From sequence record OM982647: a stretch of 64,000 nt of DNA; one strand, 5' to 3'. Position 1 is the first letter of the stretch. Every line of letters begins with the position of its first letter. Below the pieces are notes generated by a model. That model was not told the origin of the DNA. It did no database searches and worked only from the letters and a program-made list of their open reading frames with translations. Made by a program: the position numbers and the translations under genes. This document shows positions 3,896 to 55,083 of the stretch, piece after piece. Source of the stretch: Escherichia phage ST2.

Positions 3896-3930
3896 TGATA
3901 GTATCACACATCCATGTGTTTGTAAACTAT
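3896..3930 (-). promoter_or_regulatory. T4-type early promoter
   Basis: Minus strand GTTTACA, 18-nt spacer, GATACTAT -10. Confidence 0.5.
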
Positions 3931-10221: not shown

Positions 10222-10256
10222 GTCTATAATAACATAACCTGTACCAAAGTAAACAT
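10222..10256 (-). promoter_or_regulatory. T4-type early promoter with 8-bp inverted repeat flanking -10
   Basis: GTTTAC, 17-nt spacer, TATTAT; GGTACAGG/CCTGTACC arms at 10215..10245. Confidence 0.5.
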
Positions 10257-10258
10257 TT

Positions 10259-10630
10259 TTATTTGATTTTTGTCCACTTAGCTGAATCAATAACACCTTT
10301 TGCTTTAATCTTCTCAATTAATGACTCTGCGCGATTTCTGGCGTTTTCGTACCATACAACATCTTCAGAGTAACCAGTTTCTTCATCTTCGTAAGTTTTA
10401 GAACGAATACAGCCGTAAACTGTAGAATTCAGGCGGTAAATTTCACCAGTGAAAAAGTTTTCGATTTCGATATGATAACAAAAATCGTCTGAAGGGCCAT
10501 CAGGAGTTGTACAATAAACCACATCACCTTGAACTGAACGAACCATCCACTGTAACTCGTTAACAACTTGAGATTTATATCCATCATGGTCGCGGCATTT
10601 AATTGTAGCATTTAAATTGATAGTGTTCAT
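10259..10630 (-). CDS. Hypothetical protein
   Basis: 123-aa ORF with own early promoter. Confidence 0.45.
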   Translation of the reverse strand: MNTINLNATIKCRDHDGYKSQVVNELQWMVRSVQGDVVYCTTPDGPSDDFCYHIEIENFFTGEIYRLNSTVYGCIRSKTYEDEETGYSEDVVWYENARNRAESLIEKIKAKGVIDSAKWTKIK

Positions 10631-10664
10631 TTTATTCTCCGGTTGTTTTATTGATTAGGTGGTA

Positions 10665-10702
10665 CAAGTCTATAGTAACACATCCTACAGGAGAGTAAAC
10701 AT
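10665..10702 (-). promoter_or_regulatory. T4-type early promoter
   Basis: GTTTAC (10695..10700 revcomp), -10 TACTATAG. Confidence 0.45.
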
Positions 10703-10736
10703 CTTTTTAAACTTTTTCTGCCCTAAACGCACAAAA

Positions 10737-10754
10737 GGGAGACCGAAGTCTCCC
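10737..10754 (-). terminator. UUCG-tetraloop intrinsic terminator
   Basis: GGGAGAC-CGAA-GTCTCCC, followed by UUUU on transcript. Confidence 0.6.
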
Positions 10755-10759
10755 TAAAA

Positions 10760-10939
10760 TTATGCAACAACCTTTCCAAAACGAGAAGCATCATCTCGAA
10801 GAACTGCACGTGCTCTGCGCATGATCTTCTCAACTGTTTGATTAATACGAGAGTTCGACCCACGCTTGTATCCAGCGCGTTTAGAGGTACCATCAACTTT
10901 CTTTTCAACTGCTTTCTTTGCTTTAGCTTGTTTTGCCAT
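10760..10939 (-). CDS. Small basic protein, 59 aa (MAKQAKAKKAVEKK...), absent from ORF track
   Basis: ATG..TAA ORF translated by hand; lies between long non-coding stretch and strong terminator; track instead lists overlapping TTG-start ORF in another frame. Confidence 0.4.
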   Translation of the reverse strand: MAKQAKAKKAVEKKVDGTSKRAGYKRGSNSRINQTVEKIMRRARAVLRDDASRFGKVVA

Positions 10940-11202
10940 TATAAATTCTCTTTAAATGAAAATGCAGGACTTATTGACATTGCCTGCGCAAGCCCTCAAG
11001 GGGAACATAGGTTTTGAATATTTACCGACAGGATAACCATAAACCCGTCATCATACCAACCACGACTTAGACAGATAACCTTTTTCTGACGCGTGATAGT
11101 ACAAAATACATTCAAGAGGTACACCGTAAAACTGCCGGGGTCTTAAAACTATAATGATTCGCAAATCATTAATCAGACAGTTCGACGGCTCCTCGATTTA
11201 AC

Positions 11203-11451
11203 TTACTTCAGGGTAATAACAAAATGACGTACTGCTTTACGAGCCGCAGAAGCCAAAGGCTTAGCATATTTCAGTTCATCTTTTGCTTCCAGTTCAGAGG
11301 CCAATACAGCTTGGGCAGGGTTCAGATGTTTGAAATAACGCAGGATTTCCAATGCTTCGGCTTCAACATCAATAGATGCACCGTAGTTTTCGTGACCATT
11401 ATTCCATGCGTTTCGTTGCAGTTCAAGAGCGTGTTGTAATTGTTTAATCAT
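11203..11451 (-). CDS. rIII: rIII lysis-inhibition accessory protein
   Basis: 82 aa as in T4; position downstream of gene 31. Confidence 0.75.
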   Translation of the reverse strand: MIKQLQHALELQRNAWNNGHENYGASIDVEAEALEILRYFKHLNPAQAVLASELEAKDELKYAKPLASAARKAVRHFVITLK

Positions 11452-11567
11452 TTTAAATTCTCAATTCGAGATAATATTTAGTAGCCACGTTCGTCTGAAT
11501 TTCACCTTCTTTCGACAAGTCTCTCAGTTGTAGGCTACCGCTTAGAAGAGTGTTCTCTTCATATAGT

Positions 11568-11575
11568 TATTTATA
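11568..11575 (-). promoter_or_regulatory. Late promoter core TATAAATA
   Basis: Exact TATAAATA on minus strand immediately after gene 31 stop, about 115 nt upstream of rIII. Confidence 0.4.
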
Positions 11576-11908
11576 TCACTTATAAAGACACGGAATAGCT
11601 TTATAGTGGCATGTTACGAATTTCTGTTTAATTTCTTTAGGTTGTTTAAGTCCCAAAGCCACAAATGGATGTGGAACATTTCGAATTTGTCCAACTGGTA
11701 GTGGAGTCAAATCACCGACTTCAACAAAACCTTCAGGAACATCAGGACCTACAGAATGAACTACACATAGTTCAGGAACTTCACCTTGAACACGTTTACC
11801 AATCACAAGTCCTGATTCGGTAACTTCTTCATCACCTGCTTGAGCGGGTTCAGAAACCAGAATAACATATTCACCAACAGCACGAATTGGGAGTTGTACT
11901 TCAGACAT
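11576..11908 (-). CDS. 31: GroES-like co-chaperonin for capsid protein folding
   Basis: 110 aa; [34 protein letters not shown]... near-identical to T4 gp31 as I recall it. Confidence 0.9.
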
Positions 11909-14220: not shown

Positions 14221-14255
14221 GTCATAGTATCACAACTCCACCATGTTGTAAACTT
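14221..14255 (-). promoter_or_regulatory. T4-type early promoter
   Basis: GTTTACA then GTGATACTATG. Confidence 0.45.
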
Positions 14256-16342: not shown

Positions 16343-16379
16343 GGAGCATTATACTCTGCTCCCGAGAGTTTGTAAACTA
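16343..16379 (-). promoter_or_regulatory. T4-type early promoter with palindrome GGAGCA/TGCTCC flanking TATAAT
   Basis: GTTTACA, then TATAAT; near-identical copy at 44664..44700. Confidence 0.5.
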
Positions 16380-17749: not shown

Positions 17750-17784
17750 AGCCATAGTAACACCTTCCTTGGTGTTTGTAAACC
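17750..17784 (-). promoter_or_regulatory. T4-type early promoter
   Basis: GTTTACA then GTGTTACTATGG. Confidence 0.45.
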
Positions 17785-18924: not shown

Positions 18925-18966
18925 TAGTTTTTTTTAAATTGTACCACAATCCTTGTGGTGTGTAAA
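18925..18966 (-). promoter_or_regulatory. T4-type early promoter with CCACAA/TTGTGG inverted repeat in spacer
   Basis: GTTTACA, 17-nt spacer, TACAAT. Confidence 0.5.
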
Positions 18967-28787: not shown

Positions 28788-31700
28788 ATGGTTGACATCA
28801 AACGTAAGTTCAGGGCCGAAGATGGTCTTGACGCAGGCGGTGATAAGATAGTTAACGTTGCGCTTGCTGACCGCACAGTTGGCACCGATGGCGTGAACGT
28901 TGACTTTTTGGTGCAAGAAAACACCGTACAGAATTATGACGATACGCGCGCGTATACAAAAGATTTTATTGTTCTTTATGATAATCGTTTTTATCAAGCT
29001 TTAAGCGATATTCCAGCTCCGGCAGGCCCTTTCTCTTTGGCTAAATGGAAGGCAACTCGTACAGATGCAGAATGGATTACAGTTCAAGGCGGAGATTTCC
29101 AATTATCAGTAGGTAACTCTATTGCGGTTGATACTTCAGCTGGCACTGATATTAATTTCACTTTGCCTCAAAATCCTTTAGATGGCGATACAGTTATTTT
29201 GTCTGATATTGGCGGTAGAGTAGGCTATGTAAAAGTTCAAATTACTGCAGCGGCTCAAAGTATTGTAGACTTTAGAGGACAACAGGTTCGTTCAGTTTTA
29301 ATGACGCACCCAAAATCTAAAATGGTCTTCATTTTTAGCAACCGCCTATGGCAAATGTATGTTTCTGATTACGAACGTAATGCAGTCACAGTAACTCCTG
29401 CCACGCCATATCAAGCGCAACCTAATGATTTTATCATTCGACGTTTTACATCAGCCGCTCCTATTAATATTACATTGCCTCGTAATGCTAATAATGGCGA
29501 TATTATTAATTTAGTGGATTTAGACAAATTAAACCCATTATATCACACAATTGTCAAAACTTACGATGAAACAACTTCTATACGAGAAGCTGGTGTTCAT
29601 GTAGCAGAAGGACGTAATACTGCGGAAGCATTCTTTGTTTATGATTCTGCCAATAGTTTATGGCGTGTTTGGGAAGGTGACCAGAAATCTCGTTTACGTA
29701 TAGTTCGTAATGATACTGATTTACGCCCTAATGAAGAAGTTCTTGTTTTTGGAACTAATAATGATACAATCTCGACGGTAAATCTTACTTTGCCTACAGA
29801 TATTTTGTCTGGCGATACTGTTAAAATATCGTTGAATTATATGCGTAAAGGGCAAACTGTAAAAATTAAAGCTGCTGAAGGCGATACAATTGCTAGCAGT
29901 ATTTCTTTATTACAGTTCCCAAAACGTTCGGAGTATCCACCTGATGCACAATGGGTTTCTGTTAGTGAGCTGGAATTTAATGGTGATACTTCGTATGTAC
30001 CTGTACTTGAGTTATCTTATATAGAAGATTATTCATCTGAAACAAAATATTGGGTAGTTCAACAAAACACCGTAACCGTCGAACGAGTCGATGCATCGAG
30101 CAATACCACTCGAGCTCGTTTAGGTGTTATTGCTCTTGCTTCTCAAGCGCAAGCAAATGTCGATTTAGAAAATGCTCCTGGTAAAGAACTGGCTATTACT
30201 CCGGAAACATTAGCAAATCGTACAGCAACTGAAACTCGTCGTGGTATTGCTCGTATTGCAACAACTGCACAAGTTAACCAGAATACCGATTTTGCATTCC
30301 AAGACGACTTGATTATTTCTCCTAAGAAATTGAACGAACGTACAGCAACCGAAACCCGTAGAGGTGTTGCTGAAGTTGCAACTCAGGCTGAAACTAATGC
30401 CGGAACAGATGACACCACTATTATTACTCCTAAGAAATTGGATGCCCGTCAAGGTTCTGAAGTTTTATCTGGTATTGTAAAATACACATCTACGACTGGT
30501 ACTACAGCTGCTACTATTCGTGGTAATGCTGGGACTAACGTTTATAACAAAGCCGTAGATAATTTAACTATTTCTCCAAAGGCCCTTGACCAATATAAAG
30601 CTACCCCTACTCAGCAGGGTGCAGTAATTCTTGCTATTGAAAGTGAAGTTATCGCTGGCGAATCACAGGCCGGTTGGGCTAATGCTGTAGTGACCCCTGA
30701 AACTCTGCATAAGAAAACTTCTACTGATGGACGTATTGGTTTAATTGAAATTGCTACGCAAGCAGAAACTAACACTGGAACTGATTATACTAGAGCAGTA
30801 ACGCCTAAGACGTTAAACGATAGGAAAGCTACGGAAGGATTATCTGGCATAGCCGAAATTGCTACGCAAGTTGAATTTGATACTGGAACTGATGATACTC
30901 GTATCTCGACTCCACTGAAAATTAAAACTCATTTTGATTCTTCTGACCGTACCAGTGTTAATTCTGATTCCGGACTTATTGAAGAAGGAACCTTGTGGAA
31001 CCATTATACTCTTGATATTTCTAAAGCAAATGAAACACAACGTGGTACACTTCGCGTAGCGACCCAGGCAGAATCTAATGCAGGAACTTTAGATGATGTT
31101 CTTATTACTCCTAAAAAGCTTTTAGGGACTAAGTCCACTGAAACGTCTGAAGGCGTAATTAAGGTTGCTACTCAGGCTGAAACTGTAACAGGAACTTCTG
31201 CTAATACTGCTGTATCACCTAAGAATTTAAAATGGATTGTTCAATCAGAACCATCATGGACTGCTACTACGGCAATTCGTGGATTCGTTAAAACTTCATC
31301 TGGTTCTATTACATTTGTTGGTAATGATACAGTTGGTTCAACACAATCTTTAGAATCATATGAGAAAAATAGCTATGCGGTATCACCATATGAATTAAAC
31401 CGTGTACTTGCTAACTACTTACCGTTGAAAGCTAAAGCAGCTGATAGTAATTTGTTAGATGGTCTAGATTCTCTTCAGTTCATCCGTAGAGACATCGACC
31501 AGACGGTTAATGGTTCTTTAAGTCTTACTAAACAGACCAACCTGAGTGCTCCTTTAGTATCTACAAGCACTGCTTCTTTTGGTTCCGAAGCATCTGTTAC
31601 TCGTAGATTAACTCTTAATGATTCTAGCGGTTCTGAAATAATTTTCACTAAAGGAACCCAATCTCTTAGTAATAAAGAGAATTTCGTTGTTAGAGCATGG

Positions 31701-39547: not shown

Positions 39548-39580
39548 ATATAGTACCATTATCAGTGTTGATTGTAAACA
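39548..39580 (-). promoter_or_regulatory. T4-type early promoter for asiA
   Basis: GTTTACA, 18-nt spacer, TACTATAT. Confidence 0.5.
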
Positions 39581-42009: not shown

Positions 42010-42066
42010 TTTATTTCTCCAAATTAGTATTTGTTTTGATAGGTCTATAATATCATGTTTGAAGCA
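42001..42066 (-). repeat. Promoter-leader module copy A (66 bp identical to 42320..42385)
   Basis: Exact 66-bp direct repeat spanning start codon, SD and early promoter -10. Confidence 0.8.
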
Positions 42067-42076
42067 AAAGTAAACT
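42045..42076 (-). promoter_or_regulatory. T4-type early promoter for motA
   Basis: GTTTAC, 17-nt spacer, TATTAT. Confidence 0.5.
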
Positions 42077-42328: not shown

Positions 42329-42385
42329 TTTATTTCTCCAAATTAGTATTTGTTTTGATAGGTCTATAATATCATGTTTGAAGCA
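42320..42385 (-). repeat. Promoter-leader module copy B
   Basis: Exact 66-bp direct repeat of 42001..42066. Confidence 0.8.
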
Positions 42386-42420
42386 CATGTAAACTGTTTT
42401 GTGAGAAAAAATGCACAAAA

Positions 42421-54084: not shown

Positions 54085-54125
54085 TTTTGATAGGTCTATA
54101 GTATCATAAACCAGAGGAGAAGTAA
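54085..54125 (-). promoter_or_regulatory. T4-type early promoter
   Basis: GTTTAC then GATACTATAGACC. Confidence 0.45.
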
Positions 54126-54131
54126 ACAACT

Positions 54132-55034: not shown

Positions 55035-55075
55035 TTTAAATTTAATTCATTATACTCCAACCATCCTTGGTTGTA
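55035..55075 (-). promoter_or_regulatory. T4-type early promoter (consensus GTTTACA-17-TATAAT)
   Basis: Spacer contains AACCA/TGGTT inverted repeat; (CT)n tract in leader. Confidence 0.55.
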
Positions 55076-55083
55076 AACTGGTT

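Follow-up and report, generated by a model that had tools for sequence, protein, structure and literature searches.

The rIII-30.9 gap of Escherichia phage ST2 holds an array of conserved RNA structures, one of which is probably a small RNA shared among unrelated phages

We analyzed the noncoding region between the rIII and gp30.9 homologs of Escherichia phage ST2, which lies within a stretch of 64,000 nucleotides (nt) of sequence record OM982647, hereafter the window. The gap occupies positions 10940-11202 (263 bp) and holds at least four separately conserved RNA structures; the 79-nt hairpin next to rIII, designated module B, was also found in phages unrelated to T4. The window derives from a T-even-type phage, as it shares 99.6% identity with Escherichia phage vB_EcoM_PhAPEC2 (Mosigvirus) over the 801 bases around the gap, and T4 was among the 756 phage records that matched these bases. 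All local genes are on the minus strand, and the features of the locus are listed in Table 1. A first-pass annotation, made from the letters alone, had pointed to an unusually long gap with exactly these coordinates, and both its position and its size were confirmed. In PhAPEC2, the region of which is collinear with the window, the rIII-30.9 gap ranked first among 68 annotated gaps with a median of 18 bp; the next-largest gaps measured 250, 199, and 185 bp, so that it marks the extreme of the distribution and is not a lone outlier. The counterpart gap in T4 is 244 bp, and the gaps of 36 relatives fetched via the rIII protein spanned 120-416 bp.

Table 1. Positions of genes, RNA modules, and signals in and around the rIII-30.9 gap of the ST2 window
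Feature	Position	Strand	Basis
Gene 31 (neighboring gene)	11576-11908	-	
Late-promoter box TATAAATA, upstream of rIII	11568-11575	-	Late-promoter scan
Sigma70-like TTCAGA-17-TATTAT, upstream of rIII	11471-11499	-	Promoter scan
rIII homolog, 82 amino acids, upstream gene of the transcription unit	11203-11451	-	Open reading frame; 93% amino acid identity to T4 rIII; rIII in PhAPEC2 and T4 annotation
Module B, 79-nt four-helix extended hairpin	11116-11194	-	Minimum free energy fold equals comparative structure
P4, tip of module B, AATGATT-TGCG-AATCATT hairpin	11152-11171	-	8 pairs, 4 compensatory; 100% paired in 29 sequences
Module X, two-tier hairpin (outer 6 bp, inner 4 bp, loop AAAAAGGUUA)	11059-11097	-	Alignment A4
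Module D, hairpin 11027-11049 (GACGGG / CCUGUC, loop UUUAUGGUUAU) with conserved 5' UAUGAUG and 3' tail GUAAAUAUUCAAAACC	11009-11056	-	Alignment A2
E1, small G+C hairpin CCCCUUGAGGG	10993-11003	-	Read directly from the sequence
E2, GCAGG...CCTGC hairpin, 5 bp, 14-nt loop, followed by AUUUUCAUUU (10954-10963)	10964-10987	-	Sequence; -5.4 kcal/mol
Shine-Dalgarno-like AAAGAG, 8 nt 5' of the 30.9 ATG	10948-10953	-	Read from the sequence; kept in T4-type relatives
gp30.9 homolog, 59 amino acids, basic, downstream gene	10760-10939	-	Open reading frame; PhAPEC2 and T4 annotation
Strong intrinsic terminator after 30.9, GGGAGACUUCGGUCUCCC plus U-run, likely end of the rIII-30.9 unit	10731-10754	-	PhAPEC2 annotation; -14.1 kcal/mol

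The coding potential of the gap was then considered. Among the 36 homologous gaps no open reading frame (ORF) was conserved by strand, frame, or length; their longest ORFs were 16-72 amino acids (aa), and strand, start codon, and length all varied. An origin of the gap from an ORF that had decayed in this genome, which the first-pass annotation had raised as an objection, was thus rejected. Its statement that no ORF exceeds about 20 aa was correct for ATG starts on the sense strand and not beyond these, because mechanical translation gave sense-strand ORFs of 42 aa (GTG start) and 37 aa (TTG start) and an antisense ATG ORF of 26 aa (MKMQDLL..., 10956-11036 on the plus strand). The latter starts within the complement of hairpin E2, measures 24-49 aa in T4-type relatives, carries no Shine-Dalgarno sequence, and is probably not a gene. 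Several GenBank records lay ORFs of 37-50 aa, named "hypothetical protein," across module B or across module C, a block of relatives that is described below; phage WFbE185, for instance, annotates over module B a 37-aa ORF (WFbE185_00218, 1369-1482 of locus L003) that is not conserved in T4. None of these ORFs was conserved, and they are probably annotation artefacts on structured RNA.

Alignment of the 36 homologous gaps with MAFFT resolved the region into module blocks that were gained, lost, and re-ordered among relatives. The order after rIII in the window is B, X, D, E1, and E2. A 30-nt block following rIII in T4-type phages, module A, is missing from the window, and the slot after B was found in three alleles: empty in T4, occupied by module X in the window, and occupied by the approximately 140-nt module C in JS98, VR5, and the Klebsiella-, Enterobacter-, and Serratia-type phages. 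The gap is not a repeated cassette, since blastn-short against the window returned only chance words of at most 13 nt, and the covariance models built for modules B and D (R1 and R2) found one match each, at 119.7 and 66.7 bits, respectively.

Module B begins 8 nt past the rIII stop codon and comprises helices P1 (4 bp), P2 (5 bp), and P3 (8 bp), an asymmetric internal loop of 4 nt on one strand and 20 nt on the other, and P4 (8 bp) capped by a UGCG loop. Folded alone, it reached -24.5 kcal/mol (z = -3.5), and only 1 of 500 shuffled sequences was as stable. The AU-rich hairpin that the first-pass annotation had placed right after rIII is present (11153-11170), yet it starts about 32 nt past the stop codon, and the minimum free energy fold of the whole region also put it at the tip of a long irregular hairpin. 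Two alignments of module B were used to examine the structure: A1, with 16 sequences (12 Tevenvirinae variants and four copies from other phage groups), and A5, with 29 distinct sequences fitted to the covariance model. From A1, RNAalifold independently predicted P1 of 4 bp, P2 of 5 bp, P3 of 8-10 bp, the 4/20-nt loop, and P4 of 8 bp with its tetraloop. Standard pairs filled 98.5% of the cells in both alignments, and compensatory changes were seen at 12 of 27 pairs in A1 (28 cells) and 13 of 25 in A5 (69 cells), whereas controls with the structure slid along the alignment gave at most 2 compensatory pairs in either. Not one of 500 column shuffles of A1 reached the observed number of paired cells, compensatory pairs, or compensatory cells, or the observed covariation score; the count of further pair types alone fell inside the shuffled range. 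Both hairpins singled out by the first-pass annotation, the AU-rich one and the GCAGG...CCTGC stem, which was indeed found at 10964-10987, therefore exceed chance, as they belong to helices kept by compensatory changes.

The strand on which selection acts was indicated by the G·U pairs. Those at the base of P2 and of P3 were invariant in all 29 copies, and G·U pairs made up 52 of 408 cells in A1. Read from the other strand, each of these would turn into an A·C mismatch, so that selection acts on an RNA on the rIII strand. Besides the helices, the unpaired loop strands UCUGAUUA and UAUAGUUUUA...CCNC were invariant. Module B was also better kept than its neighbors: nine of ten relatives were 95-100% identical to the window copy (82% in the L020-type variant), whereas in the same ten relatives the coding sequence (CDS) of rIII was 84-93% and that of 30.9 was 59-100% identical. 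The T4 counterpart lies at NC_000866.4 complement(130669..130747).

No described RNA family accounted for module B. A scan of 10600-11600 against Rfam 15 at a permissive E-value found nothing in the gap, as any matches in or near it were at chance level and far below the gathering score; the relatives gave the same result, and so did the loci outside Tevenvirinae, which yielded tRNAs only. ARAGORN found no tRNA in the window or in the gaps of relatives, and the Rfam tRNA model missed B in every locus, and a tRNA or tRNA remnant was accordingly rejected; the inner hairpin of X resembles a D-arm, and module A begins like tRNA-Gln, but both likenesses are anecdotal. A hammerhead-like core was rejected too, given that B has CUGAUUA instead of CUGAUGA, the catalytic G is missing, and Rfam gave no match. 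Full-text literature searches, exact sequence strings included, retrieved no description of module B, none of the phage records examined annotates it as RNA, and the main text of a T4 omics paper mentions neither rIII nor 30.9 (PMC9697503). Module B thus belongs to an RNA family that we found described nowhere and that is apparently undescribed.

To determine its distribution, database records and the sequences fetched for this analysis were searched, the latter with R1. Approximately 660 phage records carry module B, nearly all at 95% identity or more, from Tequatrovirus, Mosigvirus, Dhakavirus, and Gaprivervirus; their hosts include Escherichia, Shigella, Yersinia, and Salmonella, and in the sampled records B was almost always unannotated or covered by small hypothetical ORFs. 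R1 found no B in the Klebsiella-type relatives searched, where a different structured module fills the same gap. Outside this group, B was detected in further settings. W70 and A73 (Vequintavirinae) have it about 140 nt past a TTGACA-17-TAAGAT promoter, and directly 3' of it come a tRNA-like sequence, tRNA-Met, and an rnaD homolog like that of T4. The phiWec190 copy (Phapecoctavirus) separates tRNA-Gln from tRNA-Pro and has diverged versions of A and X on either side, which keep the Tevenvirinae order; in PD06-type phages B is found between tRNA-Gly and tRNA-Gln. Finally, about 28 records of Kuravirus podophages carry B, which in the two loci examined begins approximately 15-80 nt past a CDS stop and is followed after about 25 nt by an intrinsic terminator, ahead of packaging/portal genes. 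Two more myophages of about 140 kb, A5-4 and LTH01, carry it as well. B invariably had the orientation of the genes or tRNAs around it, and in the three myophage genomes examined it was on the tRNA strand, beside or within tRNA arrays; the window copy itself lies after rIII and not in a tRNA operon. R1 also found Kuravirus-like copies in metagenome contigs. Pattern scans of genome and metagenome collections returned mostly chance matches, and the covariance model confirmed Kuravirus-like and T-even-type contigs only. A host origin was rejected, as neither the 5,426 complete E. coli genomes searched nor the plasmids of PLSDB gave a match to B.

Two of these loci deserve a separate description. 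The rnaD (species 2 RNA) homolog of W70 (approximately 785-880 of L045) was 70% identical to that of T4 over 117 nt, its blocks at the 5' and 3' ends being nearly the same, and it lies 3' of tRNA-Met in the same operon as B; T4-type small stable RNAs are therefore, judging by this homology, common to an unrelated myophage group. R1 gave no match in the tRNA/rnaC/rnaD locus of T4 itself (L052). In an IMG/VR contig of the PD06 type (L043/L044, 1293-1636), the entire rIII-30.9 gap (A, B, D, E, the Shine-Dalgarno sequence, and the ATG) lies in a cluster of 12 tRNAs. This insert is about 95% identical to T4, is joined at the ATG to the last 27 rIII codons (99% to T4), and is flanked by a 13-bp direct repeat, TTTATTGGAGATT, the second copy of which extends into the 5' end of tRNA-Gln. 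It looks like an integrated circularised T4-like segment with a GG/AAAA microhomology joint, in the style proposed for the mini-circles of promoter-early stem-loop (PeSL) cassettes.

The remaining modules of the gap were also compared among relatives. In module D, 4 of 6 stem pairs were compensatory (15 cells; alignment A2, 13 variants from E. coli-type and Klebsiella-type relatives), as against at most 1 pair in slid controls. Reading its AUGAUGA as a C/D-box or K-turn was rejected, as the motif is not conserved in two relatives (L023 and L024). A weak D-like match (R2, 22 bits, E about 0.005) was seen in Kuravirus O18-011 (1107-1157 of L049), where it overlaps the end of the upstream ORF about 50 nt before B, which hints that module D also travels outside Tevenvirinae. 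In module X, 95.8% of cells were paired with 3 compensatory pairs (alignment A4, 7 variants including phiWec190), and in phiWec190 the module is followed by U6 and is terminator-like. The GCAGG/CCTGC stem of E2 is replaced by ACTGG/CCAGT in L019 and L032, i.e., by two compensatory pairs, and by GCGGG/CCTGC in L017. The E1 motif GTACCCYTNGRGG recurs elsewhere within the gaps of relatives. Modules D, X, E1, and E2 were 87-98% identical among T-even-type relatives, and outside Tevenvirinae they were seen only where a T4-type block had recently been acquired.

Module C, which replaces X in 407 phage records, is multi-helix and RNA-like (e.g., L021 1863-2008; JS98, L011 1845-1990; VR5, L015 1881-2026). 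It is single-copy, apart from one record with two matches, and mostly unannotated, and its carriers comprise Klebsiella JD18-type phages, Enterobacter phages, Citrobacter phages Moon and Merlin, Serratia PS2, Edwardsiella PEi26, JS98, VR5, and some Tequatrovirus. RNAalifold predicted 44 pairs, 17 of them compensatory, including a GNRA-capped hairpin and a closing stem. Module C had no Rfam match at E<=1, and it is absent from the window (slot approximately 11059-11100).

Signals for transcription were sought within the gap. The T4 rIII gene has early, middle, and late promoters (PMC9409239). No mapped T4 middle promoter lies between T4 positions 130541 and 130784, i.e., between rIII and 30.9 (PMC2988021). 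The early-promoter pattern of phages T4 and PST, TTTACW-N16-18-TAYWAT (PMC4122927), matched the window 14 times, 13 times on the minus strand, where 0.84 matches were expected; none lay at 10940-11202, while the next two downstream intergenic regions are both marked by it (10672-10699 and 10226-10253). The minus-strand matches, which offer a quick map of likely early promoters of the ST2 window, are at 3898-3926, 10226-10253, 10672-10699, 14224-14252, 16348-16376, 17754-17782, 18938-18966, 29836-29863, 39550-39578, 42047-42074, 42366-42393, 54098-54126, and 55049-55077. Similarly, a generic sigma70 scan found nothing within the gap, no late box TATAAATA occurred there, the nearest being the one upstream of rIII, and no MotA box TGCTT with a properly spaced -10 (about 12 bp) was seen by eye. 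Two weak promoter-like strings in or after B, TTTACG-N16-TATTTT and TGTACC-N16-TACTAT, were discarded because neither is intact in T4 and the Kuravirus copies lack both. A terminator scan of 10600-11600 returned no site.

The first-pass annotation had implied that the AU-rich hairpin and its U-run act as a terminator. This did not hold up: the hairpin is P4, the apical helix of the 79-nt structure, and folds at only -3.9 kcal/mol, whereas the terminator after 30.9 reaches -14.1; only 1 of its 8 pairs is G-C, and the TTTT starts 3 nt past the stem. E2, with a 14-nt loop and -5.4 kcal/mol, likewise fell short of an intrinsic terminator, for which a G+C-rich stem, a short loop, and a U-tract adjoining the stem are expected. 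Since neither a promoter nor a credible terminator was found in the gap, it is most likely transcribed on the minus strand by read-through from promoters upstream of rIII, and rIII and 30.9 appear to share one transcript that ends at 10731-10754.

Taken together, the comparative data show purifying selection on the rIII strand for the array of RNA structures that makes up the gap, and that this is a structured RNA element under selection can be stated with high confidence. They further show B as a portable element, the conservation of which is independent of rIII, 30.9, or any given neighbor. We read B as a horizontally shared structured RNA, and probably as one that stands alone as a stable RNA; that it is specifically a processed, trans-acting one is a tentative proposal, for which we see slightly less than an even chance. 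The gap would form the untranslated middle of the rIII-to-30.9 transcript, so that B would be made by read-through and most likely released from the longer RNA as a small stable species, like tRNAs and the species 1 and 2 RNAs of T4. Because it occurs in tRNA operons, has no promoter of its own, and keeps an invariant loop and invariant G·U pairs, B probably acts as an RNA in its own right, independently of its neighbors, and those invariant nucleotides would be recognised by a factor common to infections of Escherichia-type hosts, probably a host protein. The explanation as a whole, a chain of RNA modules in which B is a horizontally shared, self-standing RNA, seems to us evenly balanced between right and wrong. 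The earlier suggestion of a small or structured RNA is well supported by comparison, through covariation, through conservation stronger than that of the genes on either side, and through reuse in tRNA arrays and in phages of unrelated groups; its existence as a discrete, stable RNA is inferred.

Several observations weigh against this explanation. Taken as a whole, the 286-nt region shows no unusual stability (z = -1.05), the A5 figures lean towards structure because that alignment was fitted to the model, and few independent lineages, roughly five sequence types, supply the covariation. B is also dispensable, as nothing but the stem base is left of it in PP01-type Tequatrovirus and it is missing altogether from several Tevenvirinae. 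Furthermore, in no context does B come with its own promoter, a terminator follows closely in Kuravirus only, and a discrete RNA species is, as said, deduced from comparison.

The same evidence has to be weighed against other explanations. B might act in cis, as a stabiliser of the 3' end or an RNase III/E processing site that splits the cistrons, with D, E1, and E2 forming a leader that tunes 30.9 translation or mRNA decay. The closeness of B to the stop codons of rIII and of the Kuravirus CDSs agrees with this, as does the stacking of P1-P3 into a near-continuous helix of about 17-19 bp, within the size range of RNase III substrates known from the T7 sites. E2 and its U-rich tail, moreover, lie directly 5' of the 30.9 Shine-Dalgarno sequence, and GGAG, a RegB-type motif (PMC3014915), is buried in P1/P2. 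Nevertheless, B also occurs inside tRNA arrays with no adjacent CDS, in phage groups that yielded no 30.9 homolog; its unpaired loop nucleotides are invariant across four lineages, which suggests more than a generic helix, and a plain stabiliser hairpin would need no such sequence conservation. We therefore hold a cis-acting role to be unlikely, although it keeps an appreciable share of our belief. Regulation of 30.9, which the first-pass annotation had proposed for the region, is possible for the 3' modules (E1, E2, and the Shine-Dalgarno sequence); it cannot be the conserved role of B, because B occurs also in phage groups where no 30.9 homolog was found. A link between B and the 30.9 protein was likewise rejected: homologs turned up in 1006 records, and the 30 of these that were sampled all proved to be T4-type genomes; the protein matched phrog_1427 (unknown function) and no Pfam family. 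Alternatively, B could be a processive antitermination or anti-Rho RNA, similar to put of phage HK022, that lets the polymerase read through downstream terminators or long untranslated stretches. B mostly precedes untranslated or terminator-like sequence: the intrinsic terminator of Kuravirus, the X hairpin and U6 before tRNA-Pro in phiWec190, and, in the window, about 175 nt of untranslated RNA with E2 and its U-run; in W70 it lies near the start of the tRNA operon, shortly after the promoter. An element bound by the polymerase would also function in any context, which matches the observed spread. Yet this argument is one of position; B shares neither sequence nor architecture with put, no boxA-like match was found, and the PD06-type and T4 contexts have no clear terminator after B. 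Antitermination is accordingly improbable in our judgment.

A further explanation, implicit in the first-pass annotation, places the function at the DNA level, with the gap as a cassette of rIII terminator and 30.9 promoter like the PeSLs of T4-type phages. The layout, stem-loops followed by a Shine-Dalgarno sequence and ATG, is PeSL-like; the region is a hot spot of indels and shuffling, as PeSLs are (PMC4122927), and the two weak promoter-like strings are present. These strings fail in T4 and Kuravirus as described, and the strict TTTACW-N17-TAYWAT is missing from the gap though present in the next two intergenic regions. With sigma70 and terminator scans empty, a tip hairpin of such low stability, and invariant G·U pairs that point to selection on RNA and not on DNA, this reading is very improbable. 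Least credible is a neutral fossil, in which remains of decayed ORFs or of a tRNA cluster are kept by low divergence and recombination. It could draw on module A of T4-type phages, which starts with TGGAGATT, the same bases as the start of tRNA-Gln in PD06-type phages, on the A-B-X order within the phiWec190 tRNA array, and on the loss of B from some relatives. However, compensatory changes keep the helices in spite of sequence differences of 15-25% between lineages, the conservation of B exceeds that of the neighboring CDSs in nine of ten relatives, and neither a conserved ORF nor, by ARAGORN or Rfam, a tRNA was found; covariation has already largely refuted it.

Module B adds a candidate noncoding RNA gene to a model system. 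T4 and its relatives are among the best-studied viruses, yet the rIII-30.9 region is blank or filled with spurious small ORFs in the records examined, and to our knowledge the only stable RNAs of T4 other than tRNAs are species 1 and 2, which still have no function. Both the presence of B in tRNA arrays and the recent move of an entire gap into the tRNA cluster of a Phapecoctavirus suggest that phages exchange small RNA genes at their tRNA clusters. A bolder extension, which we consider possible but rather doubtful, is that B, and perhaps X, D, and C, make up a toolkit of mobile trans-acting small RNAs, exchanged by virulent enterobacterial phages of at least four unrelated lineages, partly via tRNA clusters, that bind and manipulate a specific host factor. 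Such RNAs could serve, for example, as decoys against an RNA-targeting defence or as modulators of RNA polymerase, the ribosome, or an RNase. The easy genetics of T4 makes module B directly testable.

Among known systems, module B was compared with those of T4 and of other phages and bacteria. The species 1 (rnaC) and species 2 (rnaD) RNAs of T4 are structured RNAs of approximately 80-140 nt that are co-transcribed with tRNA genes. Likewise, the B copies of W70, phiWec190, and the PD06-type phages are on the tRNA strand in tRNA operons, the rnaD homolog of W70 shares its operon with B, and Rfam has a family neither for rnaC/rnaD nor for B. Sequence and structure, however, show no homology, in line with the blank R1 result at the T4 locus, and in T-even-type phages the place of B is the 3' untranslated region (UTR) of rIII, a long way from the tRNA cluster. 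Moreover, rnaC and rnaD are stable RNAs, whereas B is known here from sequence alone. The early RNase III hairpins of T7 and put of HK022 are intercistronic structured RNAs, 60-90 nt long and containing internal loops, and their cis-acting effect is on the transcript or the RNA polymerase. B, in comparison with these systems as generally known, shows no sequence similarity, and its asymmetric loop of 4 x 20 nt differs from the small loops of the T7 sites and from put, which consists of two adjacent stem-loops.

PeSL cassettes of T4-like phages are modular, intergenic, and located at hot spots of indels and replacement (Comeau 2014, PMC4122927). The gap resembles them in its stem-loops, its AAAGAG and ATG, and the gain, loss, and replacement of modules over lengths of 120-416 bp in the 36 relatives, and the PD06-type insertion with its 13-bp direct repeat resembles the proposed integration of PeSL mini-circles. 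It differs in that the early promoter that defines a PeSL is missing, its helices are conserved as RNA with G·U pairs, and its modules are single-copy in the window, whereas PeSLs are dispersed repeats. Such cassettes were reportedly also described by Arbiol in 2010. Lastly, bacterial small RNAs can derive from 3' UTRs or tRNA spacers, e.g., CpxQ, SroC, and 3'ETS-leuZ (PMC9438474). B resembles them in its place, just past a stop codon or in a spacer between tRNAs, and in lacking its own promoter, so that its release would need processing. Those RNAs, however, usually end in a Rho-independent terminator and act by a short single-stranded seed together with Hfq, whereas B is an almost fully paired hairpin and has no terminator in T-even-type phages. 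Thus, module B represents a new family within a known kind, the small structured RNAs encoded by phages, and in its working it would be most like the species 1 and 2 RNAs of T4 or the small RNAs derived from 3' UTRs and tRNA spacers.

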